Below, one piece after another: positions 6,633 to 23,831 of a stretch of 64,000 bases of DNA. The DNA lies in the IMG/VR virus record IMGVR_UViG_3300032220_001356, positions 1-64,000 of that record; one strand, written 5' to 3'. Every line of letters starts with the position of its first letter. Position 1 is the first letter of the stretch. The translations under genes were made by a program, and so were the position numbers. This DNA is from a virus. The notes under the pieces are model-generated. The model was not told the origin of the DNA and did not search any database. It saw nothing but the letters and a program-made list of their open reading frames with translations.

Positions 6633-6808
6633 TGTTCAAGGTTGGCGATATCGTCACCTTTAAGCTATTCAGCAATAACTATGCAGGATATGTGTTGGCA
6701 ATTGATGTTCGCTATAACACAAACGATACATGGTGCAATGTGTTATGGTTTGATAATGGTACATCGAATTGGACACCTCAACATGCTTTGCGAAAGATGG
6801 AGGATTAA
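6632..6808 (+). CDS. Small SH3/KOW-like family protein
   Basis: MFKVGDIV...VLWFD; start moved to the ATG of the TAATG overlap. Confidence 0.8.
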   Translation: MFKVGDIVTFKLFSNNYAGYVLAIDVRYNTNDTWCNVLWFDNGTSNWTPQHALRKMED

Positions 6809-6810
6809 AC

Positions 6811-7005
6811 ATGGACAAGTTTAATGTTGGAGACATTGTTAAACTCAAAAAGGTTAAAAACGCTATCTTTCAATATGACGAGGATACGTATGGTGTTATC
6901 TTGAACACAATTGCAATGCCACTTGAAGTTGAATATGTGGTGAAGTGGTTTGATAATGGTGCTGTTGGTCGTTTTAATGAATACCTTTTGGTGAAGGCAC
7001 AATAG
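6811..7005 (+). CDS. Small SH3/KOW-like family protein
   Basis: MDKFNVGDIVK...VKWFD; GGAGG RBS. Confidence 0.8.
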   Translation: MDKFNVGDIVKLKKVKNAIFQYDEDTYGVILNTIAMPLEVEYVVKWFDNGAVGRFNEYLLVKAQ

Positions 7006-7007
7006 AC

Positions 7008-7190
7008 ATGGGCAAGTTTAATGTTGGTGATATTGTCAAGTCAGCAAAGAAATTGCCACCTGTTTATGGTGTGATTATTCATTGTTATTTTGGTTGGTAC
7101 AAAGTGCTTTGGTTTGACGAAGAAATAGAAAAAGAAAACTATAATCATGAATACCCTGCTCATTTCTTAGAAAGGGTATCCGATGTTTAA
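7008..7190 (+). CDS. Small SH3/KOW-like family protein
   Basis: MGKFNVGDIVK...KVLWFD. Confidence 0.8.
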   Translation: MGKFNVGDIVKSAKKLPPVYGVIIHCYFGWYKVLWFDEEIEKENYNHEYPAHFLERVSDV

Positions 7191-7377
7191 GGTTGGAGAT
7201 ATCGTCAAACATAAACTCAGCAATGTTCATGGTGTTATTATTAAATGTGACAACATTGTTGGTGAAAACTATAAAGTGCTTTGGTTTGACGAGAATATCC
7301 AAAAGGAAAACTATGACATATCATATCCTGCTTCTTTTATGATTTATTATATAGAAAAGGTGTCCGACGATGTTTAA
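7183..7377 (+). CDS. Small SH3/KOW-like family protein, close paralog of 7008-7190
   Basis: MFKVGDIVK...KVLWFD; shares a 20-nt identical stretch with the previous gene. Confidence 0.8.
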   Translation: MFKVGDIVKHKLSNVHGVIIKCDNIVGENYKVLWFDENIQKENYDISYPASFMIYYIEKVSDDV

Positions 7378-10501: not shown

Positions 10502-10600
10502 GGGGGGTACTCCCCCCTCCCCCCTCCCTCCCCCCACGGAATGTATGTCCCATATGGCTTGGGTGTGTTATATTGCGCTTAGCGCTTAAACGACACACAC
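10502..10600. other. G/C-run palindrome with C-tracts and an adjacent hairpin at the early/late boundary
   Basis: G6-TACT-C6-T-C6-T-C3-T-C6, then a GTGTGT...ACACAC inverted repeat. Confidence 0.6.
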
Positions 10601-10687
10601 AGAAAATTTCCAAAACTTTTTAAAGGGCTATAAAAAACTCCCAATTCAAAAAAATCCTATAGAAAATTGCAGGACTTTTTAACCAAA

Positions 10688-10694
10688 CTACTTA
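10688..10694 (+). promoter_or_regulatory. Putative late promoter CTACTTA
   Basis: CTA(C/T)TTA recurs upstream of genes at 1968, 11152, 12939, 14328, 15981, 16460, 23928, 24644, 25946, 29153, 48933 and 57379. Confidence 0.65.
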
Positions 10695-10698
10695 TATC

Positions 10699-11142
10699 AT
10701 GATGAAACTAATAATGGAAAGTTGGAGGTCTTATTTAAAAGAAGCAGTTTCTTTTAATGAAGCAACCAATAATTGGTTCTATACAACACTTGATAACTCT
10801 GACGTTCCTCAACACATCCTTGGCGTATTGGAAGAAAGGGCAATTGAGGTTTATTCTTCATGTTCTTATAAAGGGGATTGTGGAGAGAACTCTCATAGAT
10901 GGATAAAAATTTTTGAAGACGCTGGAATTAACGTTCAACAAGTTGTTGGAAACTATGTTTCTCCAAATGACAAATGGTATGATAGCATTGTAAAAGGAGA
11001 GGTTGATGCTCCAATGTCGTCTGACCATGTTTGGTTATTGATTGATAATAATGTTTTGTTTGACCCAACGGCAGGACAATTTCAAACTAACATTTCTATT
11101 GAAGGCTATCTTGCAGAAGATGGAAAACCGTTGTATATTTAA
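10699..11142 (+). CDS. Leader-bearing protein with possible transglutaminase/papain-like Cys-His-Asp triad
   Basis: MKLIMESWRSYLKE leader; GDC...HVW...FDPTAGQF. Confidence 0.65.
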   Translation: MMKLIMESWRSYLKEAVSFNEATNNWFYTTLDNSDVPQHILGVLEERAIEVYSSCSYKGDCGENSHRWIKIFEDAGINVQQVVGNYVSPNDKWYDSIVKGEVDAPMSSDHVWLLIDNNVLFDPTAGQFQTNISIEGYLAEDGKPLYI

Positions 11143-11151
11143 TTAAATAAA

Positions 11152-11158
11152 CTACTTA
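11152..11158 (+). promoter_or_regulatory. Putative late promoter CTACTTA
   Basis: 7 nt before ATG 11166; no SD sequence. Confidence 0.62.
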
Positions 11159-11165
11159 TAACATA

Positions 11166-12257
11166 ATGAAACTGATATTAGAAAACTGGAAAAGATACAC
11201 TCATGCAATTCTCAACGAGGATTTGCTTATTGAATCATATGAAGACGCTTATGAAACAATAAAGAAAAGAAGTGCCAAACTATTAAAAGGTTGGGCTTAC
11301 GATAAATCGCCAGATAGATATAATCAAATTGAAAAAAATATTCAAGATGCAATACTTGATAAGTTGGGAAGCAATCCCTCACAAGAAGAAATAAATAAAT
11401 ATACAAATGCTTGGGAGTTGGGCGGAATCGTTATTGCAAACATGATAAACGATAAGATTATTCCAAACGACATTACAGATAAACAAAAAAGTATTGCGTT
11501 ATTGTGGAATTATAAGCAACTTGTAAAAAATTCAATCGTAGATTTAGATTCTTTCTTAAACATGATTGTTGAGTACCTTGCGGCACATGGTTATGACATT
11601 TTCTTAAATTTCTCTGGTAGGCATCTTGATATTCCAGAGCTAAGAGCAAATTTCAATTTGAGCTTTGCTTATGCTTACTTGGCAGATGATCCACAATCTT
11701 CTGAGTCTGATATAAGAAGAGCAAAATTGATTGAAAACTTTTTTCATTGGAATAGATTTGTTGAGGAAGGAAAAAAGGATTTAAATTCCGTTTCTAGTTA
11801 CAATGAACTTATTGAACTTGTAAAAGAAGCAAAACCTTTATTTCAAGCTTGGCAAGAAAGACAAGAACAAGCAGATGCAGATAAGGGCAAAGAAGTTTTA
11901 TTGGATGATAAGAACTGGCAAATAATCGTTATTCATAATAAGGGTGCTGCTTGTCAATTGGGCAAAGGAACCGATTGGTGTACCGCTGCTCCCGGTCTTG
12001 ATTATTTCAAGCAATATTATAAACCCGATGACCCATTGTTTTATATTCTTGATAAAAGCGATGGAGAACGTTATCAATTCCACTTTGGAACTCAACAATT
12101 CATGGACAAAGATGATTATAATCTTTATCCTTCTCGTTATCATGTTGGGGATGAAATAATGTCTGTTCTTGCAAAAGTTGTTCCTGCAAAATATGATATT
12201 GCAAGAAGTTACCTAAACAACGTCTTTTATAATGGGCATATCCGAAGGTTCATGTGA
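11166..12257 (+). CDS. Leader-bearing protein with C-terminal PcfJ-like domain
   Basis: MKLILENWKRY leader; AACQLGKGTDWCTA...YFKQY...YQFHF. Confidence 0.65.
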   Translation: MKLILENWKRYTHAILNEDLLIESYEDAYETIKKRSAKLLKGWAYDKSPDRYNQIEKNIQDAILDKLGSNPSQEEINKYTNAWELGGIVIANMINDKIIPNDITDKQKSIALLWNYKQLVKNSIVDLDSFLNMIVEYLAAHGYDIFLNFSGRHLDIPELRANFNLSFAYAYLADDPQSSESDIRRAKLIENFFHWNRFVEEGKKDLNSVSSYNELIELVKEAKPLFQAWQERQEQADADKGKEVLLDDKNWQIIVIHNKGAACQLGKGTDWCTAAPGLDYFKQYYKPDDPLFYILDKSDGERYQFHFGTQQFMDKDDYNLYPSRYHVGDEIMSVLAKVVPAKYDIARSYLNNVFYNGHIRRFM

Positions 12258-12886
12258 TGAAAATTTTATTGGAAAATTGGCGAGGCTTTCTTAATGAAAG
12301 TCTTTTATTGAAACCGGGACCAGATGGTTGGGAAAAATATTCGCAATTGGTTGGCAAGGCTTATTTGGCTGCTCCCAAGTTTGAGGCAAGAGCCGTTCCT
12401 CACTTTCAAGCAATGATACCATTTATTGAAAAAATGTTCAAGCGCATTTCATCAAAAGTTGATATTCAGTTTGTCGATTATCATGCATATGAAAATGCTC
12501 AACAATTAAAGAACGATGTTAAGCAAAATGGCATTATGAAGATTGCAACCATTGATGCTCAACATGATGTATTTGATGAATTGACAAATGCAAAGTTTCG
12601 TGCAATCCATGATTATATGTCTCATATTCAAGCAATTGGTTCAAGAGGAACAGAATTCTCATTGATTGGAGAACTTCAATCTTATAATGTTCACTTGAAA
12701 ACTCTTCCTCCAAAAGCAGTCCCTGCCCTATTCACAGAGATAGTTGGACAAGTATCTGCTTATTATGTAGGTGGTGGAAAATTTGCAGAACAAAAAATTT
12801 GCTTATTGGATGGTTTTGATTATTACAATATTGGAAAGGTCGAAGGCTACGATATTGTGAATAAAACATTGGTTGAAAAGGTTTAA
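12257..12886 (+). CDS. Leader-bearing conserved phage protein (FRAIHD..H motif, possibly metal-binding)
   Basis: MKILLENWRGFLNE leader; NAKFRAIHDYMSH...GE...ALFTEIVGQ. Confidence 0.7.
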   Translation: MKILLENWRGFLNESLLLKPGPDGWEKYSQLVGKAYLAAPKFEARAVPHFQAMIPFIEKMFKRISSKVDIQFVDYHAYENAQQLKNDVKQNGIMKIATIDAQHDVFDELTNAKFRAIHDYMSHIQAIGSRGTEFSLIGELQSYNVHLKTLPPKAVPALFTEIVGQVSAYYVGGGKFAEQKICLLDGFDYYNIGKVEGYDIVNKTLVEKV

Positions 12887-12904
12887 TATTATTTTATTTG
12901 CTCA

Positions 12905-12937
12905 AAAAAAACCCCGGAAGAAATTCTGGGGTTTTTT
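12905..12937 (+). terminator. Intrinsic terminator
   Basis: AAAAAACCCCGGAA-GAAA-TTCTGGGGTTTTTT. Confidence 0.8.
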
Positions 12938-12938
12938 A

Positions 12939-12945
12939 CTATTTA
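12939..12945 (+). promoter_or_regulatory. Putative late promoter CTATTTA
   Basis: Directly after a terminator and 4 nt before ATG 12950. Confidence 0.68.
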
Positions 12946-12949
12946 TAAT

Positions 12950-13834
12950 ATGAAACTTTTATTAGAAAACTTCCGCAATTACATTAATGAACAAGCAATG
13001 TTTGGCGGAGAAGGTATGTCCGAAGGTGGATATTCTGAAGAAGAAACAAAATTCTTTAAGGACTTACCACAGATAGGCGAACAAATCTCAAGTGCTTTTG
13101 ATAAGTTTCTTAAAGAACTTAATGAACAATATAAACAACCTGTTGGGATTGTTGAAATACAAAAAAATATTCTAAAGTTTGTTCGCTATGTTGGCGAATC
13201 AACTGGCAATAAAACAAAATATATTGGTCATGGAAAGTTTCGTTGCGTATTTGATATTGGCGATGAATACATAATCAAGTTTGATATTACTCCAAATAAT
13301 GCAGCAGCAGAACAAAATAAAACTGATGCAGAACTTGGAAGATTATCTCATAAGTATTATAATTTGTTTCCTTTATCGGCAATCTCTGAAAAAGATTATC
13401 GTTGGGTTGCTCTTGAAAAAGCTCAACCATTTGAGTCTTTTGATATTAAAACTTATAATGAATTTTTTCCAAATCCCCTTCTTGATGAAATAAAAAGCCC
13501 AGTTGTTAAAAACAAATTAATTCAAATATCTTTTGTATATAACTCTGGAAACAAATTGAGAGCTTTGGAAATATATAAAGACTTATGGACAAAACTTCCA
13601 ATTGTTGAAGTGCAAAAACTTAAAAAGATCCCTTTCAAAAAAATGTGTAATGCTTTTGGACAAAATAAGTTGTACGACAATGTAATGAGTGCTATAATGA
13701 GATTGGGTATTCGACCAGAAGAAATAAGATTGGCTAACACAGGAACTGGTGCAGATGGAAGATTTGTTATTCTTGATTCTTCTATTGAAAGTCAAATTGT
13801 TTCTGGTTTTGCAAAATCAAAAATTCAACCATAG
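12950..13834 (+). CDS. Leader-bearing protein kinase-like fold protein
   Basis: MKLLLENFRNYINE leader; IGHGKFRCV Gly loop, IIKF lysine, EIRLANTG, VILDS. Confidence 0.6.
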   Translation: MKLLLENFRNYINEQAMFGGEGMSEGGYSEEETKFFKDLPQIGEQISSAFDKFLKELNEQYKQPVGIVEIQKNILKFVRYVGESTGNKTKYIGHGKFRCVFDIGDEYIIKFDITPNNAAAEQNKTDAELGRLSHKYYNLFPLSAISEKDYRWVALEKAQPFESFDIKTYNEFFPNPLLDEIKSPVVKNKLIQISFVYNSGNKLRALEIYKDLWTKLPIVEVQKLKKIPFKKMCNAFGQNKLYDNVMSAIMRLGIRPEEIRLANTGTGADGRFVILDSSIESQIVSGFAKSKIQP

Positions 13835-13842
13835 AGGCATAA

Positions 13843-14325
13843 ATGGGAGTTGAAGTAGGTAATTATTGTACAACATCTTTTATCTTGAAGGATGCAGAAT
13901 CTGTTAAGTATATTAAAAAACTTTGTGACCTTCTTACAGATGAAACCAACCTTTCTTGTGGTTATTTGTCTGATGACGCTTATTGCCAGTTTGATGCCTA
14001 TAGTAAGGAAGAAAATTCTTTCATTATTAAGGCTGGCGGTTTTATGGACTCTGGCGTTGATATTCGTTATTCTGCTTTACACGATAGACAGGGAACAGAG
14101 GAAGATGAAGTAGATGAAGATTATGAAGAAGAGCATGACCCAATTAATCTATGGGAAGAAGTACAAAAGCATCTAAAAGAAGGTGCTTGGTTCTTTGTCG
14201 ATGAATACTCTTATGGTCGTTCCTATGCAACAACTTCTGTTTCGTTTTATCATCAAAACGGAAAAACAGAATATGAATCAAGTTTTAATATCAAAAAACA
14301 TATTTTGAAGAAAATGGGTATTTAA
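13843..14325 (+). CDS. Hypothetical protein
   Basis: 160-aa ORF with GAGG RBS. Confidence 0.7.
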   Translation: MGVEVGNYCTTSFILKDAESVKYIKKLCDLLTDETNLSCGYLSDDAYCQFDAYSKEENSFIIKAGGFMDSGVDIRYSALHDRQGTEEDEVDEDYEEEHDPINLWEEVQKHLKEGAWFFVDEYSYGRSYATTSVSFYHQNGKTEYESSFNIKKHILKKMGI

Positions 14326-14352
14326 TACTATTTATTGAAAAGGAATCCAACC

Positions 14353-14607
14353 ATGAAACTCACCGAATCCAAATTACGTTCTCTTGTCCGTGAAGAATTA
14401 AGCAATGTTCTTGAAATGTATAGACAACCAAAAGAAGAACCTGTTGTTACTCCTAAAGCTGCTGCTGCCGGTACTGCTATGGCTGGTTTAGCTGCTGCAC
14501 CATTTGCAATTGCACAATACTTACAAACAAATCCAGAAATGATGAAAAAAGTTATAGCTATGCTTAACGCTACTGGCGATTTTATGCAAAATTTAGAACA
14601 AGAGTAA
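14353..14607 (+). CDS. Leader-bearing small protein (MKLTESKLRSLVREEL)
   Basis: ATG 14353 follows AGGA RBS and CTATTTA at 14328. Confidence 0.72.
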   Translation: MKLTESKLRSLVREELSNVLEMYRQPKEEPVVTPKAAAAGTAMAGLAAAPFAIAQYLQTNPEMMKKVIAMLNATGDFMQNLEQE

Positions 14608-14616
14608 AATTTGTAA

Positions 14617-14949
14617 ATGCGTATTATCATAAAGGAACAAGCATTTGAGCAAAAAGTTTATGAATTCAAGTTTTCTGTAAAAATTTCAAGACAAGAAGAA
14701 GAATTCATAAACTTTACAAAGATTAAAGACACTCTTCGTGGTATCGAAAATGTTACAATTGTTCGTACTGAAGCTTCTCCAGAATCAACTAGCAAATACG
14801 ATATTAAATACTTAATTGTCAAAGCAGAATTTCAACGTGGTGAAGATATTGAATTCTTCTTGAATAACACTCTTATTCCTCAAATTAAAGAGATCCCAGA
14901 GTTCTATTATGACAAGTTGGTATCTGTTAAAAAAGTAGCAGAAAGATAA
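14617..14949 (+). CDS. Hypothetical protein
   Basis: 110-aa ORF starting MRIIIKE. Confidence 0.7.
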   Translation: MRIIIKEQAFEQKVYEFKFSVKISRQEEEFINFTKIKDTLRGIENVTIVRTEASPESTSKYDIKYLIVKAEFQRGEDIEFFLNNTLIPQIKEIPEFYYDKLVSVKKVAER

Positions 14950-14970
14950 AAACAAAGTTATAATAGTTTA

Positions 14971-15378
14971 ATGAATAGACTATCTTGGGACCAAGTATGG
15001 TCCAACTTTGCTTTAACAATTTCTCAACGTTCAACCGATCCTAAATTTAGGGTTGGTTGTGTTATTGTTCCTTTTGATAATACTGGCGTATTGTCTCTCG
15101 GTTACAATGGTGACCAGAAAGGTGGAACAAACGAAAGAGAATCAAATGATTCTGGTGGCTCTGGGTTTATCCACGCAGAGATAAATGCCTTAATTAAAAT
15201 GGATTTTAATAATCCAAAACAAAAGAAAATGTATGTTACTCACTCTCCTTGCAAAATGTGTGCAAAAGCGATCATCAATGCAGACATAAAGGAAGTTAAT
15301 TATTCCGAAGTATATCTTAATGACACAACCGGAATTGATTTATTGATAAAGCATGGTATTAAGGTAAATAAAATATAA
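14971..15378 (+). CDS. dCMP deaminase family protein
   Basis: HAEINA and SPCKMC zinc motifs; GYNG. Confidence 0.9.
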   Translation: MNRLSWDQVWSNFALTISQRSTDPKFRVGCVIVPFDNTGVLSLGYNGDQKGGTNERESNDSGGSGFIHAEINALIKMDFNNPKQKKMYVTHSPCKMCAKAIINADIKEVNYSEVYLNDTTGIDLLIKHGIKVNKI

Positions 15379-15404
15379 TTACTATAAGCAACGAGGTTTT
15401 TGCT

Positions 15405-15686
15405 ATGACAACCAAAACACATGAAGTCTATACACAACTTACTGCAAAAGCATTAACTGAAACACAAAAGAAAATCAAAGTTCTTTATGATTACGAATTG
15501 ATTTCTGGTTCTGGAATTAAATTTTATGTCAATATTGAAACAAGACAAGTTGTACCAATCGTAGCTGGTAAGGTAATCACAAGAATTACAGAATTCCCAG
15601 ATGAAAAAGGTTGTCATATTGTATATGCACAAAACCAAAAAATACTTGTTCCAGAAAGTGATATTATTGGTATTGGTCTGAACTGA
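15405..15686 (+). CDS. Hypothetical protein
   Basis: 93-aa ORF with GAGG RBS. Confidence 0.68.
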   Translation: MTTKTHEVYTQLTAKALTETQKKIKVLYDYELISGSGIKFYVNIETRQVVPIVAGKVITRITEFPDEKGCHIVYAQNQKILVPESDIIGIGLN

Positions 15687-15952
15687 TGGAACATATATTC
15701 GGACAATATACGTTAAAAAAAATAAAAATAGGAGATATTGTTTCTTGGTCGGAATTGGCAGACGATTCCAAAGGTATAGTAAAACCAGAAATGAAAAAAA
15801 GTTTTGGTTTTGTATCAAAAATAGAAATAGTAAATCGTGGAAGTAGAAAAGTTGGAATTGTAAAAGTTATTCCTATGGGTTCTACAATTGAAAAAGAAGT
15901 TCTTGCTGTATGTATTTCGTTAGTAAGTAACCAACAAATTCACGATATTTAA
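15686..15952 (+). CDS. SH3/KOW-like hypothetical protein
   Basis: IKIGDIVSW; TGATG coupling. Confidence 0.68.
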   Translation: MEHIFGQYTLKKIKIGDIVSWSELADDSKGIVKPEMKKSFGFVSKIEIVNRGSRKVGIVKVIPMGSTIEKEVLAVCISLVSNQQIHDI

Positions 15953-16006
15953 TTTTTTTTGCCAGTTTCTAAACATATTTCTATTTATATAACAAGGAGT
16001 TTAACA

Positions 16007-16357
16007 ATGAAACTTACAGAATCTGCTCTTCGCAAAATAATTAAAGAAGAATTAAATAAAGTATTAAATGAAGGAAAGGGTCATCCACTTGATGATATTA
16101 CAAAAAAAATGGTTGCTATTCACGATAAGGCATACCATGCTGGTGGTACTCCCTCTGCAATGTTTCAGATGTTATTAGATATAGAAGAACTTAAATCTGA
16201 GATTAAAAATCTCTTCGATACGGGCCAAGTAAGCGATGAAGATTTTGAAAAATATGTTAAAAATAAGAAAAATTTTGAACCAACAAAATTCCGTAGTGCA
16301 GAACAAAATAAAGAAATGACAGATTTTGAAGATTATTTAAATAAGAATAATTTTTAA
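16007..16357 (+). CDS. Leader-bearing protein (MKLTESALRKIIKEEL)
   Basis: ATG 16007 follows AGGAG RBS and CTATTTA at 15981. Confidence 0.75.
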   Translation: MKLTESALRKIIKEELNKVLNEGKGHPLDDITKKMVAIHDKAYHAGGTPSAMFQMLLDIEELKSEIKNLFDTGQVSDEDFEKYVKNKKNFEPTKFRSAEQNKEMTDFEDYLNKNNF

Positions 16358-16410
16358 TTAAAAAAAATCATTGCGTGGTTCTAAACAATAAAACTTAAAT
16401 TTAAAAGATC

Positions 16411-16446
16411 AAATGCCTTTTAGATAATCTCTAAAAGGCATTTTTA
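16411..16446 (+). terminator. Intrinsic terminator
   Basis: AAATGCCTTTTAGA pairs with TCTAAAAGGCATTT, followed by a T-run. Confidence 0.72.
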
Positions 16447-16470
16447 TTTATATATACAACTATTTAGTAT

Positions 16471-17418
16471 ATGCTATTAAAAGAACAATACCAAGTATTG
16501 GTCAAATCTTTATTACCATATGCTCAAAAGCAACTTGGGTTTAATAAACCACCTGTTATTAATTTTCTGGATGATACAGAAAATTCATCAAACCCATTAG
16601 GTAAAACCGGATTTTATAAACCAGACGATAAATCTATCTCTGTTTTTATAACCAATCGCCACCCAAAAGACATATTACGTTCTGTTGCTCATGAATTAGT
16701 TCATTATCAACAGGATTGTGATGGTCGTTTAACTCAACATCTTGAAAAAGAGTTATACGACAAAAGGTATGCACAAAATAATCCAGATTTAAGAAAATTT
16801 GAAGAAGAAGCATATCTTAAAGGAAATATGATTTTTAGAGATTGGGAAGATAATTATAAAAACCAACCATTAACTATAAGGATTAACAACAAAATGAACG
16901 AATCTAAATTAAGAGCATACATCAAAAAAGCTTTAGCTGAAGTTCTCGCTGAAGCAAAGACAGAAAAAGAAGAAGAACAAAGACCAGAACCAAAGGTACG
17001 TGATAGTGCTAAAAAGTCTGAATTAAGCAAATACAAGATCGCAGAGGACACCGACACAGATAGTGTACCATTTAACGAGTGGAAGAATCAAGAGTTGTTT
17101 GGTCTTTTGTCAAACAAGTTTTTTGGACGTAATCTTACCGAAGCTGCAAAACCAGATTTTCTTGACTTAGATAAAGATGGTAACAAAAAAGAATCAATGA
17201 AACAAGCAGCAAAACAAGCCAAAGAAGAAAATGGCGAAGAAGACGAAGAAGAACAAGAGCTTGACGAAGCAAAACTTACTAAGCCAGAAACAAAAGAAAA
17301 AGAAAAAATTGTTAAAGGTATGAAAAAATCAAAAAAAGAATTTGATAAAAGATATCCCGGTAGAGGCGAAGAAGTTATGTATGCTACCGCAACCAAAATG
17401 GCACAAGAGAAAAAATAA
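16471..17418 (+). CDS. Zincin-like (HELVH) protein with internal leader repeat, EF-hand-like motif and acidic C-terminal modules
   Basis: RSVAHELVHYQQ...EEEAY; MNESKLRAYIKKALAEVLAE; DLDKDGN; VMYATATKMA. Confidence 0.72.
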   Translation: MLLKEQYQVLVKSLLPYAQKQLGFNKPPVINFLDDTENSSNPLGKTGFYKPDDKSISVFITNRHPKDILRSVAHELVHYQQDCDGRLTQHLEKELYDKRYAQNNPDLRKFEEEAYLKGNMIFRDWEDNYKNQPLTIRINNKMNESKLRAYIKKALAEVLAEAKTEKEEEQRPEPKVRDSAKKSELSKYKIAEDTDTDSVPFNEWKNQELFGLLSNKFFGRNLTEAAKPDFLDLDKDGNKKESMKQAAKQAKEENGEEDEEEQELDEAKLTKPETKEKEKIVKGMKKSKKEFDKRYPGRGEEVMYATATKMAQEKK

Positions 17419-17618
17419 TGAAATATAGTAAATTTTTAACACTTAAAGAACTTTGGGAAAACAAAAAACAACAATCTATCGAACTTCCTAAACAAGAACC
17501 AAAAGTCGAAACTGAAGAACCAGTAATTGAAACTATAACTCCTGTTGTTGAAGAAGTAAAGGATGAACCAGTTGTTGTTGTTCCAAAACCAAGCAAGAAG
17601 AAAACAACAAATGCCTAA
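17418..17618 (+). CDS. Hypothetical protein
   Basis: 66-aa Glu/Pro-rich ORF coupled to its neighbours. Confidence 0.6.
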   Translation: MKYSKFLTLKELWENKKQQSIELPKQEPKVETEEPVIETITPVVEEVKDEPVVVVPKPSKKKTTNA

Positions 17619-17901
17619 AAATACTTTTTTAAACAACATAACTTGGAATTTTTTTAAACTTGAAGAAAATGTTTCTCCAAGTGTTATGTCTTATCTTCAA
17701 TCGTTAACTGAAACTTTAAATTCATTACGTCCAAGTTCTACTTCTGACAAAAGAAGAATAGAGATTGCAAAAAGTCACTTGAAAGAAGTTAGACGACACG
17801 TTAATAAGTTAGAAGAACAAGTTTTTACATTAGAAGAAAAAGTAAAATTATTAGAAGAAACAAAAGAAAAAGAATCTGATATAATAGAAGAAAAGGAATA
17901 A
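17611..17901 (+). CDS. Hypothetical coiled-coil protein
   Basis: Heptad-like C-terminus; start moved to 17611 to reduce overlap. Confidence 0.62.
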   Translation: MPKNTFLNNITWNFFKLEENVSPSVMSYLQSLTETLNSLRPSSTSDKRRIEIAKSHLKEVRRHVNKLEEQVFTLEEKVKLLEETKEKESDIIEEKE

Positions 17902-17907
17902 TAATTT

Positions 17908-20900
17908 ATGTTGTTATTAGAGGGTGGTAATGTTTTTAAGTCTAAAGATGGAAAACCACTAACACAAAGAATCAATCAAGCCGATGTTACTCCAACCATA
18001 AGATGGTTAGAAAACATTTTAGGTATTGATTTATTAGACAACACCCTTGGAACAACTGGTAAAAATCCTACATCTGGTGATTTAGATATTGCTGTTAATC
18101 AAGAAGAAAATTCAAAAGAAGAAGTTTATAATGAATTAGTTTTATGGGTTTCTAAAAATATTCCAGATGCAAACATAAGAGAATACGTTGCTAAAACTGG
18201 TATAGAAGTACATTTTAGAACACCTATCAATGGAAATCCAGCAAATGGATATGTACAAACAGATTTGATGTTTGGAGATCCAGAATTTATGAAATGGGCT
18301 GCACAAGGCGAACCACCCGGAGAGTTTAAGGGACAACATAGACAAACTCTTCTTGCTTCTATTGCCAAATTTAGAGGCTATAAATGGTCTGGTTTTAATG
18401 GTTTAACTAATCGTCAAACAAATAAAAAAACAACAAATCCACAAGAAATAACTGATATTCTTCTTGGAACAGGACACAATCCAAGTGATTTAACTTCAAT
18501 TAATAAGATTTTAGATATTATTAAAAATGATCCAAACTACAACGAAATGGTTGCAGATGCTGTTGAAGCATTTCCAAAATATGGTGTTCAATTTCCTTTG
18601 TTAAACACAAAAAATAGAAAAGAAGTTCCAGTTGTATCATTACAAGAAGCAAACGTAAGTGATGGTCCAAGAATTCAACACGCAGAAGATTTGGTATTTT
18701 GGGAAGGTAGCAAGGGTGCTATCCGTGCTCTTGATGCACTTGCAAGTTTAGCAACAGAACAAGGACAGAAAGCAACATCATTGAAATGGGATGGTTCTCC
18801 CGCAGTAATATTTGGTCGTGATGAAAACGGACAATTTATATTTACAGATAAGAGTGGTTTTACTGCAAAAGGGTATGACGGAAAAGCAAAGACACCAGAA
18901 GAACTTGAAAACATTTTTGTTAATGTAAGAAAATTAAATAAAGGCAAAGAAGTAACACCAGATTACACAAATTTTGTTGGTAATCTAAAAAATGCATTTT
19001 TAGTTTTTGAGGCAGCAACTCCAAAAGATGTTCGTGGATACTTTTTTGGCGATTTACTTTATACTGAAACACCAAAGGTTGTTGATGGAAAGTTTATATT
19101 TAAGCCAAACATTGTTGAATACAAGATTGATGCAAGTAGCGATATTGGAAAAAGAATTGCACAAAGCAAGGTTGGTGTAGTAGTACATGGACAAGTAGAT
19201 TTTGAGGGCAACAAATTAAGTGTTAAAGATTACAATATTTTCCAAGGAACAGATTTATTAGTTGTTCCTCCTGTTCTTCCAAAAGAACCAGTAAAGATTG
19301 ATACAAAACAAATAAATTCAGCAAAAAGTAAAATTAGTTCTAATGCTTCTATGATTGATGATTTATTGAATAAAGAAACATTACGTTCATTAAAAATTTC
19401 TAATTTAGCAGAATTATTCTATACATACACAAACTCAAAAGTCGATACTGGACTTGATAATTTAGGACAAGACTTTATTGCTTGGTTGGATAATTCAAAA
19501 GCAACTGAAAATGCTAAACAAAGTATAAAAAACTATATTCAACAAAACAAACAAGGTTTTGATGCTCTATGGGATTGTGTCAAAACCATTATGAGTGTCA
19601 AAAACAATATTATTAGACAATTAGATTCACAAGATGCACCTGTCAAATCTTCTATTGGAACAATGGAAGGTGGCGAAGGATATGTAATTGCAAGTCCTGC
19701 TGGTTATATCAAATTGGTTGATAGAGAAGGTTTTACAAAAGCAAACAGAGCAGTTCAGAGAGAATCTTTAATTAGAGAACAAATGATGGAACAAAATACA
19801 ATTGCTTTATTCCCCGGCTCATTTAAGCCACCACACAAAGGCCATATGGCAGTTGTTTCTTATTTGGCGTCTATATACGACGAAGTAATAGTTTTGGTTT
19901 CTCAGCCCGTTGCAGCGCAATCAATTAGAAGTGATATAACAGGTCAACAAGCAGCAGATATTTTTAATATGTATATAGGCGATGCTAATTATGAAAATGC
20001 TGTTGCAATAAAATCAAATGTACCATCTCCAATAGGAGCAGTATACGATATTATTGAAAAGAAACAATTTGCTCCAAATACTAAAGTAGTTGTTGCTACA
20101 TCAACTAAAGATGCTGATAGATATCCACAAGCTAGTTTGGACAAAGCAGCAAACAAAAACCCATCTAAACCAATTGTTGCTAGCGTTACTATTCCTGCAA
20201 TTACAAGTGATACTGGTAAGCCATTTTCTGCAACTGATTTTAGAAATACTATTAATTCAGTTAGAAATGGTGAAGCAGACATTTCAGCATTATTTGAGTT
20301 TATGCCAGAGTTTGTCACAGACCAACAAAAACAAAAAATTGCAAATATTTTAGTTGGTACTTCCAAACAAATTGAATTAAATGAATTGCTTAACATAATT
20401 AATGAAATGGCTACAATGGCTGCTGGAGCAGTAGAAGGTGCTGCTGGCGGAATTGGACAACCCGTTAAAAGAAAAAAGAAAAAAGGAATTACACAAATGA
20501 ACGAAGAAGAAGCACAACTTAGACAAGTTATTAGAAACGCTATTCGTTTGCACAAAACTAATAAACTTCAAGAATTCAAGAAGTCCAAACTTGAAGAACA
20601 GCAATTAAGATATATTGTTAGAAAGCTTATTATGGAAGCTGGTGAAGACCAACCAATCCACGATAATACTGGTATTAACGTTCTTGAAGATTTGTTAAAG
20701 AAAATAATTCCTGTTATTCAAACTGATTATAAAATTATGACAACCTCTGAAACACAAAGACTTTCTTTCAGAGCACATATTCTTAACGCAATTCAAAATT
20801 CATTGAAACCAGAGTTGTACAGAAAGGAAGAAACTCCTCCCGGTGCTCCACAACTTCAAGAACAAAACAAGATAAAAATTGATCTTGAAGATAATGAATT

Positions 20901-21267
20901 AGATAAATCAAAATTTATTGATGTTTTTAATACGAAAGCAAAAGAGCAAGAAGAAGCAGATAAGTTTAATACACCAGAATCTAGATTATCAACCGGTTTA
21001 GAAAAAGAAAAACTTGATTCTACTGGAAGAAACATGGCTCTTCAAACTTTCAAGAAAATTGACAATTCAGTTATGGATGCGTATACTATTCTTGATGATT
21101 CAAAAGACAAAGACTTATTTTATGATTATTTGATTACAAATTTGAAATTATATTTTGATAAGTTTGAAGAAGAAATGATGGATATGCCAGAGACAGAACC
21201 ATCAACACCGGAATATGACGCAGAAAAACAAAAGAAAGAAGAAGAAGACGTACCAGTAGAGGTTTAA
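17908..21267 (+). CDS. Multidomain protein: Pol-beta-like nucleotidyltransferase, KxDG ligase-like (DUF6267-like) domain, HxGH cytidylyltransferase-like domain and helical C-terminus
   Basis: LGTTGKNPTSGDLDIAV; HAEDL...KWDGSPA...GDLLY...GEGYV...KLVDR; FPGSFKPPHKGH...SATDFR. Confidence 0.75.
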   Translation: MLLLEGGNVFKSKDGKPLTQRINQADVTPTIRWLENILGIDLLDNTLGTTGKNPTSGDLDIAVNQEENSKEEVYNELVLWVSKNIPDANIREYVAKTGIEVHFRTPINGNPANGYVQTDLMFGDPEFMKWAAQGEPPGEFKGQHRQTLLASIAKFRGYKWSGFNGLTNRQTNKKTTNPQEITDILLGTGHNPSDLTSINKILDIIKNDPNYNEMVADAVEAFPKYGVQFPLLNTKNRKEVPVVSLQEANVSDGPRIQHAEDLVFWEGSKGAIRALDALASLATEQGQKATSLKWDGSPAVIFGRDENGQFIFTDKSGFTAKGYDGKAKTPEELENIFVNVRKLNKGKEVTPDYTNFVGNLKNAFLVFEAATPKDVRGYFFGDLLYTETPKVVDGKFIFKPNIVEYKIDASSDIGKRIAQSKVGVVVHGQVDFEGNKLSVKDYNIFQGTDLLVVPPVLPKEPVKIDTKQINSAKSKISSNASMIDDLLNKETLRSLKISNLAELFYTYTNSKVDTGLDNLGQDFIAWLDNSKATENAKQSIKNYIQQNKQGFDALWDCVKTIMSVKNNIIRQLDSQDAPVKSSIGTMEGGEGYVIASPAGYIKLVDREGFTKANRAVQRESLIREQMMEQNTIALFPGSFKPPHKGHMAVVSYLASIYDEVIVLVSQPVAAQSIRSDITGQQAADIFNMYIGDANYENAVAIKSNVPSPIGAVYDIIEKKQFAPNTKVVVATSTKDADRYPQASLDKAANKNPSKPIVASVTIPAITSDTGKPFSATDFRNTINSVRNGEADISALFEFMPEFVTDQQKQKIANILVGTSKQIELNELLNIINEMATMAAGAVEGAAGGIGQPVKRKKKKGITQMNEEEAQLRQVIRNAIRLHKTNKLQEFKKSKLEEQQLRYIVRKLIMEAGEDQPIHDNTGINVLEDLLKKIIPVIQTDYKIMTTSETQRLSFRAHILNAIQNSLKPELYRKEETPPGAPQLQEQNKIKIDLEDNELDKSKFIDVFNTKAKEQEEADKFNTPESRLSTGLEKEKLDSTGRNMALQTFKKIDNSVMDAYTILDDSKDKDLFYDYLITNLKLYFDKFEEEMMDMPETEPSTPEYDAEKQKKEEEDVPVEV

Positions 21268-21645
21268 TTGATTCGTAATAGATTTTCTGAATATTCGTTT
21301 TCTAAATATTTAAGAAGTACAAATAAATCCTCTGACGAATTTGAGTTCATGTTGAATCAATTAACGTTGGAGGAAATTATTGCTCTTAAATTAGAAATCA
21401 GTTCAAGAGCAGTAAACGGAAAATTATATGGTTTTAATTTATGGAGACAAATACCAAAAATAGCAAAAGAAGGATTATTGCTTTTTGCTGTTTCTGCAAC
21501 AACCAATATTGTAGAAGCACAAACTTTGCTAGGTGTAACAGATATTGTGCAATTTAGACATATTCTTTATAGATACAAAGATGTATTAAAGTATTATAAT
21601 GTTACTGATTTAAAAGGTAGAAAGTACTTAAAAAATATTCTTTAA
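21268..21645 (+). CDS. Hypothetical protein
   Basis: 125-aa ORF, TTG start after GAGG. Confidence 0.65.
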   Translation: MIRNRFSEYSFSKYLRSTNKSSDEFEFMLNQLTLEEIIALKLEISSRAVNGKLYGFNLWRQIPKIAKEGLLLFAVSATTNIVEAQTLLGVTDIVQFRHILYRYKDVLKYYNVTDLKGRKYLKNIL

Positions 21646-21669
21646 TATATATATTTTAGGAGCTTAAAT

Positions 21670-22239
21670 ATGACAAAACCAATATTGCTACAAAAATTAG
21701 AATCTAAAGGTTACAAGGTATTTGATGGAAAATGGGATTTAAACATAATTGGTGTTCGTAAAAAAGAAGGTACACCAAATAAGTTTGATGATCGTATTTA
21801 TGTAATTTGTAAAAATGATAACAATGAGTGGCAAGAGTGGTCATGGTCTGCTACAACAGATCCCGGTACATATTGGCTTAAAGAATTAATGAACAAGCTT
21901 GGAACAGCAATCTTAAAAGAAGGACAATGGAGAGGGTGCTGGAAACTAGGTCTTCACAAAGGCGAAAAGCCAGCATTAGTTCAGATAAAGCCAGTTACCG
22001 TATATCGTGATAACGACAAAGATGCACAACACGATTTTAATCTGGGAGAAAGTACCGGATTATATGGTATAAATATTCACAGAGCAGGTAAGAATTCTAC
22101 AAATGTAGATAAGTGGTCTGCTGGTTGCCAAGTTTTTGCAAATGATGCAGATTTTGAAGAATTTTTGTCATTATGTAGAAAACAAGTATCTGCTGGTATT
22201 GGCGACGTATTTTCTTACACACTTTTGAAGGAAGAATAA
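21670..22239 (+). CDS. L,D-transpeptidase (YkuD)-like peptidoglycan enzyme
   Basis: GINIHRAG...WSAGCQV His/Cys motif. Confidence 0.7.
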   Translation: MTKPILLQKLESKGYKVFDGKWDLNIIGVRKKEGTPNKFDDRIYVICKNDNNEWQEWSWSATTDPGTYWLKELMNKLGTAILKEGQWRGCWKLGLHKGEKPALVQIKPVTVYRDNDKDAQHDFNLGESTGLYGINIHRAGKNSTNVDKWSAGCQVFANDADFEEFLSLCRKQVSAGIGDVFSYTLLKEE

Positions 22240-22243
22240 GTTA

Positions 22244-22951
22244 ATGTCTATTTCAGAACAACAAAGATATGTTATTGATTGCGTTGTCTCTATTTTTGAA
22301 ACTGGCAGAATACCAACTGCTGCTTCTTATGGAACTTGCTCCGTATTAAATGATGGTGCTGGTATTTCTTATGGAAAACATCAATGCACAGACAAAGCAG
22401 GTTCTTTGGATTTGGTTTGCAAACGATATATTGAGCTTGGTGGACAACAAGCAGAGCCATTAAAACAATATATGAATTATCTTGCTACAAACGCAAGTAC
22501 AAAATTCAATTCCGATACAGGTAAATATCCTGCTTGGCTTAATTCATTAATTAGCTTATTGAAGTCTGCTGGTTCAGATAAATTGATGCAACAAGCACAA
22601 GATGAAATATTCAATAAAAATTACTGGAATCCAGCAGTAGAACATTGCAAAAATATCGGTCTTACTACTGCTCTTGGACATTTGGTAATTTATGATACCT
22701 GTATTCACTCTGGACCCGGTAGAGTTTCTTCATTAAGAGCAAAGTTTCCAGAAAAATCACCAGCAAATGGTGGAGATGAAAAAGCTTGGGTTATTGCTTT
22801 CTTAAATACAAGAAGAGCTTGGCTTGCTTCCAGCTCAAATTCATTGGTACAAAAAACTACTTATAGAATTGATGCAATGCTTGAAATAGCAAAAGCAAAT
22901 AATTGGGACTTAAATACTCCAATGATTGTCAGAAAGGTAAAAATTGGATAA
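22244..22951 (+). CDS. Chitosanase (GH46)-like lysozyme-fold endolysin candidate
   Basis: SIFETG...YG...LNDGAGISYGKHQCT...AQD...YWNPA...YDTCIHSG. Confidence 0.72.
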   Translation: MSISEQQRYVIDCVVSIFETGRIPTAASYGTCSVLNDGAGISYGKHQCTDKAGSLDLVCKRYIELGGQQAEPLKQYMNYLATNASTKFNSDTGKYPAWLNSLISLLKSAGSDKLMQQAQDEIFNKNYWNPAVEHCKNIGLTTALGHLVIYDTCIHSGPGRVSSLRAKFPEKSPANGGDEKAWVIAFLNTRRAWLASSSNSLVQKTTYRIDAMLEIAKANNWDLNTPMIVRKVKIG

Positions 22952-23631
22952 TGAAAATTAGAATTTTATTAAATGAAGAACACAAGACTTATGGATATGG
23001 AAAAAATTATATTCCAAATGAAAGATTGGAAGAATTATTTAGATTTTTTCATTTAAGCTCAACACAACTTCATCAAAATTCTAAAACTTTTACTTTTAAT
23101 CCAAGAGTGCCAAAAAGTCCATACGAAGATGAAGAATTTCGTGTAATTGAAGATGATTTTACACCAAGAATATCATTAGCTACAAAAATTATGGATGCTG
23201 CTGATGCATTGGGTGCAAAAGAAAGCGATAAATATTATGTTTACGCTTGTGATATTGAATCTAGATTAGATGACGATATTGATGCAATACCATTGAATTT
23301 ACAATTCAAACAATGTCAACAAGATAACAAAGTAGATCCAGATTATGGAGAAGAATATAAATTTTCTAAATTTGTTAAAAAGTATAGAAACGAACTTGGT
23401 GTTCTAAATCCAGAAGATACTTATTTTTCTCCTAGGATGCTTCCAAATAAACTCAAAAAGAAATGGACCGCATGTGTACCAGACGCAGGTAGAACAAACG
23501 AATATTGGTCCATTAAAGATACAAAGATGTATTATATTGGAAGATATCAAGCTAATAATTCTTTTGTTCAATTGTCGTGGCAAGGAAAACAAATTATCAA
23601 TGCAATTGAAAAACAAGAATCATCTTCTTGA
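22951..23631 (+). CDS. Hypothetical protein starting MKIRILLNE
   Basis: Start moved to the TAATG overlap; PRVP...ED...PRISLA...VPDA...EYW. Confidence 0.7.
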   Translation: MKIRILLNEEHKTYGYGKNYIPNERLEELFRFFHLSSTQLHQNSKTFTFNPRVPKSPYEDEEFRVIEDDFTPRISLATKIMDAADALGAKESDKYYVYACDIESRLDDDIDAIPLNLQFKQCQQDNKVDPDYGEEYKFSKFVKKYRNELGVLNPEDTYFSPRMLPNKLKKKWTACVPDAGRTNEYWSIKDTKMYYIGRYQANNSFVQLSWQGKQIINAIEKQESSS

Positions 23632-23656
23632 CATTAAAGCGATATGTTGATATGAT
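23628..23656 (+). promoter_or_regulatory. Sigma70-like promoter
   Basis: TTGACA-N17-TATGAT. Confidence 0.7.
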
Positions 23657-23678
23657 TTGTATGTTCGCGGGAGAACAT

Positions 23679-23831
23679 ATGAGTGCTAAAGGATTTGATA
23701 AAACAAAATTCAAAGAAAAAGTAGCAAATCAAGTTCAAGAAGAACAAATCGAAGATTTAGTTCATCTTCAAGAAAAAAAGAAAAGACTAAATCGAACAGA
23801 ACTTTTTAAGAGAGTAGAAAATGAGTCGTAA
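23679..23831 (+). CDS. Hypothetical small protein
   Basis: ATG 23679 follows a GGGAG RBS downstream of the promoter. Confidence 0.6.
   Translation: MSAKGFDKTKFKEKVANQVQEEQIEDLVHLQEKKKRLNRTELFKRVENES

Follow-up and report, generated by a model that had tools for sequence, protein, structure and literature searches.

In coliphage T4, the first 10 residues of the internal protein IPIII suffice for targeting to the head (PMC3012670, PMC9026906). Within this 10-residue capsid-targeting sequence (CTS), positions 4 and 7 serve targeting and positions 8 and 10 serve processing by the protease gp21, which cleaves after L/I-x-E and is blocked by an Asp at position 10 (PMC9026906), and the CTS is the sole conserved part of the diverse internal proteins of T-even phages (PMC3012670, PMC9026906). 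The giant phages phiKZ, 201phi2-1 and SPN3US likewise carry propeptides on head and ejection proteins; diverged gp21-like proteases cleave these after a short motif whose last residue is Glu (PMC9026906). Another class of portable element is represented by the PeSLs, mobile promoter-terminator cassettes by which T4-like phages shuffle genes within their hyperplastic regions (PMC4122927, PMC2839356). We describe two short N-terminal leaders shared by otherwise unrelated proteins in a 64,000-nucleotide stretch of viral DNA (hereafter the window), namely positions 1 to 64,000 of the IMG/VR record IMGVR_UViG_3300032220_001356, with most attention to positions 10,699 to 23,631. We put the probability that these leaders are capsid-targeting propeptides of the T4 type at about 60%.

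The record is linear, 90,725 bp long and approximately 50% complete (CheckV), the window being its first 64 kb, and nearly every gene lies on the + strand. Among cultured phages, its large terminase (gp17-like, 88464-90050) matches best that of Flavobacterium phage vB_FspM_immuto, at 42% identity, and that of Microcystis phage Mel-JY01, at 43%, with T4-like cyanophages next, which makes the phage a distant uncultured member of the T4-like myoviruses. A megablast search of positions 10600-23700 against phage records matched nothing. The sequencing runs on record as containing positions 10600-17500 are DNA runs, mostly labelled freshwater or riverine, with no RNA run among them.

A regular-expression scan of all six frames of the whole 90,725-bp record with the type A pattern MK[LIV]xxE[NSD][WFY][RK] returned exactly four matches, every one at a gene start (10702, 11166, 12257 and 12950). 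A strict type B pattern likewise hit four gene starts and nothing else, two in the window (14353, 16007) and two farther along the record (81627, 87529). The type A leader, MKLxLENW..(L/I)xE, is 14-18 residues long and stands on four neighbouring genes, while the type B leader, MK(L/I)(T/S)xSxL(R/K)xxIxxEL.., is about 22 residues long and stands on four genes as well; all eight leaders of the record contain the processing-type motif L/I-x-E. The leader genes of the window are the following.

10702-11142, + strand: gene A1, 146 aa, with the type A leader MKLIMESWRSYLKE at 10702-10743.
11166-12257, + strand: gene A2, 363 aa, with an 18-residue type A leader at 11166-11219 that has a 4-residue insertion and ends in LNE.
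12257-12886, + strand: gene A3, 209 aa, with the type A leader MKILLENWRGFLNE at 12257-12298; its start overlaps the A2 stop codon.
12950-13834, + strand: gene A4, 294 aa, with the type A leader MKLLLENFRNYINE at 12950-12991 and a candidate kinase-like cargo.
14353-14607, + strand: gene B1, 84 aa, with the type B leader MKLTESKLRSLVREELSNVLE at 14353-14415 and a cargo holding 0 [LI]xE sites.
16007-16357, + strand: gene B2, 116 aa, with the type B leader MKLTESALRKIIKEELNKVLNE at 16007-16072.

A looser type B core gave eight matches, of which three are known B N-termini, three are internal copies (at 16903 in the open reading frame, or ORF, that starts at 16471, and at 20512 and 20599 in the ORF that starts at 17908) and two lie in non-gene frames (1017 and 7356). 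These scans bear out two proposals of the first-pass annotation, which had been made from the letters of the DNA: that two leader types precede otherwise unrelated proteins, and that further type B copies lie inside the 16471 and 17908 ORFs.

The same leaders are widespread in IMG/VR. A search with a degenerate DNA pattern for MKLxLENW gave at least 120 type A loci with at least 175 ORFs, at least 149 of them unique and at least 30 aa long, and type B was found at no fewer than 120 loci in at least 146 unique ORFs, mostly of 70-230 aa. Beyond the 8 residues fixed by the pattern, the type A leader among the matches listed conserves R9 (78%), Y/F11 (94%), L/I/V12 (91%) and E14 (81%), and from position 15 onward no residue exceeds 27%. 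The sequence [LIVMF]xE occupies positions 12-14 in 117 of these 149 type A ORFs, many of the others being shifted by one residue, and the leader always stands at the true N-terminus, an upstream in-frame stop preceding its ATG by a median of 5 codons. In the listed type B matches, the 15 fixed residues are followed by L/I/V at position 16 in 77%, and a second [LIVM]xE with its Glu at 19-24 is present in 102 of 145 ORFs, followed by G/A in 40 of those 102. The leader motif is not chance; the strict B pattern has 70 matches in 31 protease-bearing records, all on the coding strand, and its reversed-pattern control has 0. The leader is also portable, as the 143 complete type A ORFs fall into at least 72 cargo clusters (BLASTP, 1e-5) and the 134 unique type B ORFs into at least 121, one 14- or 22-residue peptide thus standing on hundreds of unrelated cargos. 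A signal peptide of the Sec/Tat type was considered and rejected. Such signals have an unbroken hydrophobic core of roughly 7-15 residues following a basic N-region, and the leaders place a charged or polar residue every 3-4 positions (E6, N7, R9 and K10 in type A; K5, K9, K13, E14 and E15 in type B).

Conservation of this kind could also reside in the DNA, the shared start being a nucleic-acid element (a translation-initiation 5' coding sequence or PeSL-like shuffling homology) that encodes a peptide without a role of its own. Uniform synonymous positions among the matches listed (A as third base of codon 4 in 85%, T in codon 5 in 86%, GAA in 96%) would fit such an element, as would hairpin-plus-promoter units before A4 and the 16471 ORF and a start of 24 identical nucleotides in five of the eight type A leaders (loose pattern) of a complete relative (G029; L128-L130, 113-148 kb). 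Within the window, however, most synonymous sites vary among the four A leaders and the peptide is kept, from which it follows that these leaders are not recent DNA copies and that the kept unit is the peptide, not the DNA. Positions 9-14, which the pattern leaves free, are conserved as amino acids with mixed codons, and the upstream DNA of 149 A and 145 B instances among the matches listed holds no conserved element beyond a Shine-Dalgarno-like G run. Furthermore, a translation signal would not yield the avoidance of [LI]xE in the downstream cargo that is reported below. We regard a purely nucleic-acid role as very improbable, and a PeSL-type regulatory cassette was rejected on this lack of upstream conservation; the window has two local hairpin-motif units. 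The identical 24-nt starts in G029 suggest that leader DNA may additionally act as recombination homology, a role that is compatible with the capsid-targeting reading as a means of spread.

Cargo loaded into a head would meet a protease that cuts after L/I-x-E, and surviving cargo is therefore expected to avoid [LI]xE. To express this, the observed number of [LI]xE was divided by the number expected from composition (O/E), with 1960 non-leader ORFs of the same loci as the control. Among the matches listed, O/E is 0.93 in type A cargo (366/394) and 0.87 in type B cargo (147/168), versus 1.23 in the controls (5584/4525), and the bootstrap intervals of cargo and control do not overlap. The avoidance is specific, with [LI]xD, [LI]xK, [LI]xQ, [LI]xN and Ex[LI] at or above control levels in the cargo. 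The pooled contrast of [LI]xE versus [LI]x[DKQN] is 0.75 (null 1.09±0.05), a value reached by 0 of 1000 size-matched control subsets, and the depletion persists when the bootstrap is run over cargo clusters, each counted once. In the relatives of this phage, the kinds of protein that are degraded in T4 go the other way, with O/E at 1.75 for the scaffold, 2.04 for a ~270-aa protein, 2.91 for a ~140-aa protein and 2.42 for the protease; the terminase is at 1.18, and the 59-residue capsid propeptide is dense in [LI]xE-type sites and ends in ELLRE.

T4 itself served as a control, with sequences from its GenBank record and the cargo counted without the first ten residues. Its cargo proteins IPI, IPII, IPIII and Alt together have 8 sites versus 10.1 expected (0.79; contrast 0.60), IPII and IPIII having no [LI]xE past the CTS, while the core proteins gp67, gp68, gp21 and gp22 have 31 versus 12.8 expected (2.41) and 26 other proteins have 88 versus 74.2 expected (1.19). 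The avoidance-versus-enrichment statistic is thus reproduced in T4 and offers a simple sequence test that separates protease-exposed survivors from proteins meant for destruction. This distinction also bears on the notion that the leader is a degradation or timing tag, through which a host or phage protease removes proteins at a set stage of infection and nothing is delivered. Such a tag might well end in a protease motif, as the leaders do, and the T4 core proteins that are destroyed also begin with short L/I-x-E stretches. Destruction-bound proteins, however, are enriched in [LI]xE, whereas leader cargo is depleted, which points to cargo that survives after one cut, and we give the degradation explanation hardly any weight.

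The leaders also appear to follow the prohead protease. Of 33 IMG/VR records with the type A leader, 11 encode the S77 protease family PF03420, as do 20 of another 33 with type B; in those at least 90% complete the counts are 5/5 and 4/4, and the shorter records are all rated as fragments of large genomes. Judged from these sequences, confinement of the leaders to T4-like genomes with an S77 protease held at the clade level. Type A is the narrower of the two, its loose pattern occurring in two of five complete genomes, while the three largest lack it and are rich in B variants; an uncultured 484-kb record has a single B-like match.

The gp21-type protease (PF03420) and the gp23 capsid protein (PF07068) were not found on the 90.7-kb fragment, which ends 675 bp past the terminase gene. 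Among the loci retrieved by terminase homology are relatives with 92-94% terminase identity, in which the upstream gene order is as in the record. Past the terminase, these encode a portal protein (Portal_T4, E=1.8e-78), then two core-like proteins and one small protein of membrane-like character. The S77 protease comes next, 3.7 kb downstream (PF03420, E=1.7e-29 in L263, ORF at 6654-7259; protease-like ORFs in L264 and L266). After it lie a type B ORF of 70 aa and a B-like ORF of 258 aa, and then the conserved ~140-aa protein and another B-like ORF, of 299 aa. Two to three type B ORFs lie just beyond the point corresponding to the end of this contig in the relatives with 92-94% identical terminase, and because these relatives have the protease there, it almost certainly lies just beyond the contig end in this phage too. 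The Glu-specific protease on which the first-pass annotation had made its proposal depend is thus present in the relatives, although not on the fragment itself.

Two further proteins of these modules have no Pfam or PHROG match. The ~140-aa protein (MKKxELKKxLKPLIKECI..., L263:8332-8751) has homologues in 20 loci, and the ~270-aa protein is encoded after the portal and carries the motif HNKKRNTAF. From their sequences, both probably belong to the prohead core and undergo degradation. The ~140-aa protein (MKKxxLKxxLKPxVKECI...) was also considered as an ancestor of the type B leader, which was not supported (hhalign profile-profile probability 16.8%).

A number of observations weigh against capsid targeting. 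The record's own eight leader cargos have 20 [LI]xE sites versus 14.0 expected, with a contrast of 1.04 (1.06 in the other 87 genes), so that the avoidance holds as a statistic of the clade but does not show in this phage; in A4, 4 of the 7 sites fall within the first 67 residues. Shortened leaders, which the first-pass annotation had added to the two full types, are as a class at chance frequency, with [LI]xE in the first 10 residues of 9 of the 91 genes without a full leader, versus 10.0% by chance. The late-promoter motif ACTAYTTAT is only modestly over-represented in the window, with 6 matches, all on the + strand, where 2.66±1.64 are expected, a count reached by 6 of 100 shuffles. No cultured phage carrying the leaders was found, either by tblastn against phage records, in which neither B1 nor the widespread leader-bearing cargo L039:2596-3201 had a match, or in the four cultured relatives immuto, HTVC008M, Syn9 and Mel-JY01, which have no leader of either type. 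The capsid and scaffold proteins of the relatives carry neither leader. In a sample of 15 head modules picked by terminase homology irrespective of leaders, 4 hold a leader ORF between the portal and capsid genes, and leader ORFs make up 7 of 124 there versus 39 of 654 elsewhere (Fisher p=1.0). A concentration of leader genes beside the protease is thus not supported by these counts, and the earlier impression of leader genes near the head module was biased because those loci had been selected for leaders. With regard to the cargo, the median isoelectric point is 4.8 for type A and 5.2 for type B among the matches listed, that is, mostly acidic; T4 IPII and IPIII are basic. Some of the cargo looks like everyday enzymes of the cytoplasm (NUDIX, P-loop kinases, RNase T), some of its proteins reach 800-1100 aa, and one complete relative has about 9 genes with type A and 4-6 with type B, a large load for one head.

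Part of this evidence would suit an arrangement in which the leaders dock to a different shared partner (for example a hub protein of phage or host, a membrane, or a factory for replication or assembly) and gather enzymes there without capsid loading or cleavage. Docking of this kind agrees with the amphipathic, heptad-like hydrophobic pattern of the leaders, with cargo enzymes that are normally cytoplasmic, with a head module not enriched in leader genes and with the occurrence of B-like helices inside two long proteins as well. It leaves unexplained why conservation ends abruptly at (L/I/V)-x-E, why the cargo specifically avoids [LI]xE, as does the proven head cargo of T4, and why the leaders are restricted to genomes with an S77 protease, and we consider it unlikely. 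As for capsid targeting, the address tag envisaged by the first-pass annotation is upheld in part: its testable sequence predictions held at the clade level, but depletion in the phage's own cargos, the short forms and enrichment at the head module did not.

If the leaders are capsid-targeting propeptides, each would form a short amphipathic N-terminal helix by which the protein docks on the scaffolding core while the prohead assembles. A gp21-type (S77) protease would then cut after the conserved (L/I/V)-x-E, freeing the cargo inside the head; the predicted cut follows E14 in type A, whereas in type B it follows about E21-22, with the invariant IxE at 12-14 as a possible further site. By analogy with T4 IPI-III and Alt, the cargo would enter the next host together with the DNA. 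The leader DNA may double as a short stretch of recombination homology for the swapping of cargo genes.

Beyond the six full leader genes, the window contains short-form and multi-domain ORFs on which the same proposal touched.

14617-14949, + strand: short-form ORF, 110 aa, beginning MRIIIKE, indistinguishable from chance.
16471-17418, + strand: ORF of 315 aa, beginning MLLKE, with an HExxH motif.
17908-21267, + strand: multi-domain ORF of 1119 aa, beginning MLLLE directly before GGNVF.
22951-23631, + strand: short-form ORF, 226 aa, beginning MKIRILLNE, indistinguishable from chance, with 1 [LI]xE in its cargo versus 2.0 expected.

The short form MLLKE at the N-terminus of the 16471 ORF is likewise indistinguishable from chance. 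Its internal B-like helix runs from a Met (about 16894-16953) and ends in two LAE sites, and the 17908 ORF has two such helices at about 20497-20560 and 20590-20650. Since the internal copies each start with Met, the long ORFs look like in-frame fusions of formerly separate leader genes, and the protease may cut the fused products apart again. In the 17908 ORF, Pfam places DUF6267 at residues 256-617 and CTP_transf_like from 634, and [LI]xE sites stand at the domain borders, with E245 before DUF6267, E622 before the cytidylyltransferase-like domain and E824 and E831 after the latter. On sequence grounds this placement fits a polyprotein that would be cut apart. In alignment, E5 of this ORF falls on E14 of the complete type A leader of a homologous cargo, which indicates that MLLLE is a truncated leader; in this ORF the short form thus has homology support, which the class as a whole lacks. 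Five of the nine short-form genes are found among the 13 such genes at 13.8-23.6 kb (Fisher p=0.0025, post hoc). Just upstream of the 1119-aa ORF, a 112-aa coiled-coil ORF (17563-17901) has 9 [LI]xE versus 2.7 expected, a scaffold-like composition.

Several of these genes follow a late-promoter-like motif, in two cases in combination with a hairpin.

10687-10695, + strand: ACTACTTAT, late-promoter-like, 15 nt before the A1 start.
11151-11159, + strand: ACTAYTTAT-type motif before the A2 start.
12906-12937, + strand: terminator-like hairpin, followed directly by the late motif and the A4 start.
12938-12946, + strand: ACTAYTTAT-type motif before the A4 start.
14327-14335, + strand: ACTAYTTAT-type motif before the B1 start.
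15981-15988, + strand: one-base variant CTATTTAT before B2.
16411-16443, + strand: terminator-like hairpin before the 16471 ORF, in a second such unit.

The motif ACTAYTTAT occurs eight times in the whole record, always on the + strand, and four of these occurrences sit 12-26 nt before A1, A2, A4 and B1. The suggestion that most leader genes follow a late motif therefore stands for exact copies at these four genes and a variant at B2, but is tempered by the modest over-representation noted above. Of 13 distinct relatives (L123-L342), 10 have the exact motif before the scaffold gene and the other 3 have the variant ACTAATTA. ACTAYTTAT is therefore a candidate clade-wide late promoter, and its placement fits late expression of the leader genes. 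Sigma-70-like sites are at chance in the region (66 versus 61±8.5). At A4 and at the 16471 ORF, the succession of hairpin, late motif and gene start forms a compact terminator-promoter unit.

Searches of Pfam and PHROGs returned nearly nothing on the window's leader proteins, and the enzyme types ascribed to them by the first-pass annotation fared unevenly. The nucleotidyltransferases correspond to the DUF6267 and cytidylyltransferase-like assignments in the 17908 ORF. The zincin domain of the 16471 ORF has its HExxH motif but no family match (Pfam, PHROG). The PcfJ-like domain on A2 is a weak lead from Atlas scores of 0.90-0.91 to clusters in which 26-33% of members have PcfJ, with no significant PDB-sequence match; A2 has full-length leader-bearing homologues in IMG/VR, and a search for loci related via its product gave no relative. 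A4 has Atlas scores of 0.94-0.96 to clusters that partly carry Phage_T7_kinase, Pkinase or Kinase-PolyVal, but neither A4 nor its family has a significant match in Pfam (22 members) or PDB (sequence, profile), so its kinase-like fold is treated as a lead only. The best PDB match in the A1, A2, A4 and A4-profile searches was a secreted effector kinase, below significance (E=0.21). The leader is kept in 21 of 22 aligned A4 homologues. A second, longer contig (109,796 bp) encodes a protein identical to A4 and may contain more of the genome. A1, the putative Cys-His-Asp enzyme, had no Pfam, PHROG or PDB-sequence match. The cargo of A3 is a member of phrog_3170; its mycobacteriophage homologues match residues 32-184 only and hence are without the leader, and leader-bearing homologues are 63% and 50% identical to it. 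Across IMG/VR, Pfam matches on the 72 type A representatives comprise Pkinase (two), PGDYG, NUDIX, Zeta_toxin, AAA_33 and RNase_T (one each) and some DUFs.

Effector roles for this cargo are our inference. We tentatively propose, at a confidence that falls somewhat short of even odds, that an uncultured aquatic clade of T4-like phages loads a large and fast-changing set of enzymes into its capsid by means of two interchangeable, recombination-portable leaders, the set including kinases, NUDIX hydrolases, nucleotidyltransferases, exonucleases and cut-apart polyproteins. If this is true, each particle would inject a protein toolkit far more diverse than the three or four internal proteins of T4, the injected proteins of thousands of uncultured phages could be read from sequence through the leader alone, and a large set of candidate host-takeover and counter-defence enzymes would be opened. 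T4 capsid targeting, known from a few coliphage proteins, would then represent a general and expanded strategy in aquatic T4-like phages, and the leaders might be put to use as packaging tags when such phages are engineered.

How the leaders stand beside the described systems can be set out as follows. They share with the T4 CTS a short N-terminal tag on unrelated proteins, a gp21-family protease, and cargo that is poor and core proteins that are rich in [LI]xE, here at the clade level. T4 IPII and IPIII begin MKTYQEFIAE, and by eye the leaders resemble this in the MK start, an acidic residue 6 followed by an aromatic and the (L/I)-x-E end, a likeness too short for statistics. They differ from the CTS in their length (14 and about 22 residues versus 10), in the presence of two leader types in one genome and in having no demonstrable sequence homology to it. 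Tagged genes are also far more numerous than in T4, with at least 8 on this half genome and about 13-15 in one complete relative; the cargo consists mostly of acidic enzymes or unknown proteins of up to about 900 aa, and its packaging and cleavage are predicted. A full-text search, covering main texts, found no paper with the leader letters or with such tags outside coliphages and giant phages. In the giant phages many head-loaded proteins are also processed after Glu by a gp21 relative, and their propeptides may hold several sites; these propeptides do not appear to be one shared portable leader (PMC9026906), whereas here a single peptide recurs, and no inner body is implied. PeSLs resemble this locus in placing a short conserved sequence at gene borders of a variable region, and the hairpin-plus-promoter units before A4 and the 16471 ORF are a further likeness, but the conserved unit is here coding and kept as amino acids, and the upstream DNA is not conserved across the clade. 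Taken together, these likenesses and differences suggest that the leaders probably represent T4-type capsid targeting in a new and far more extensive form.

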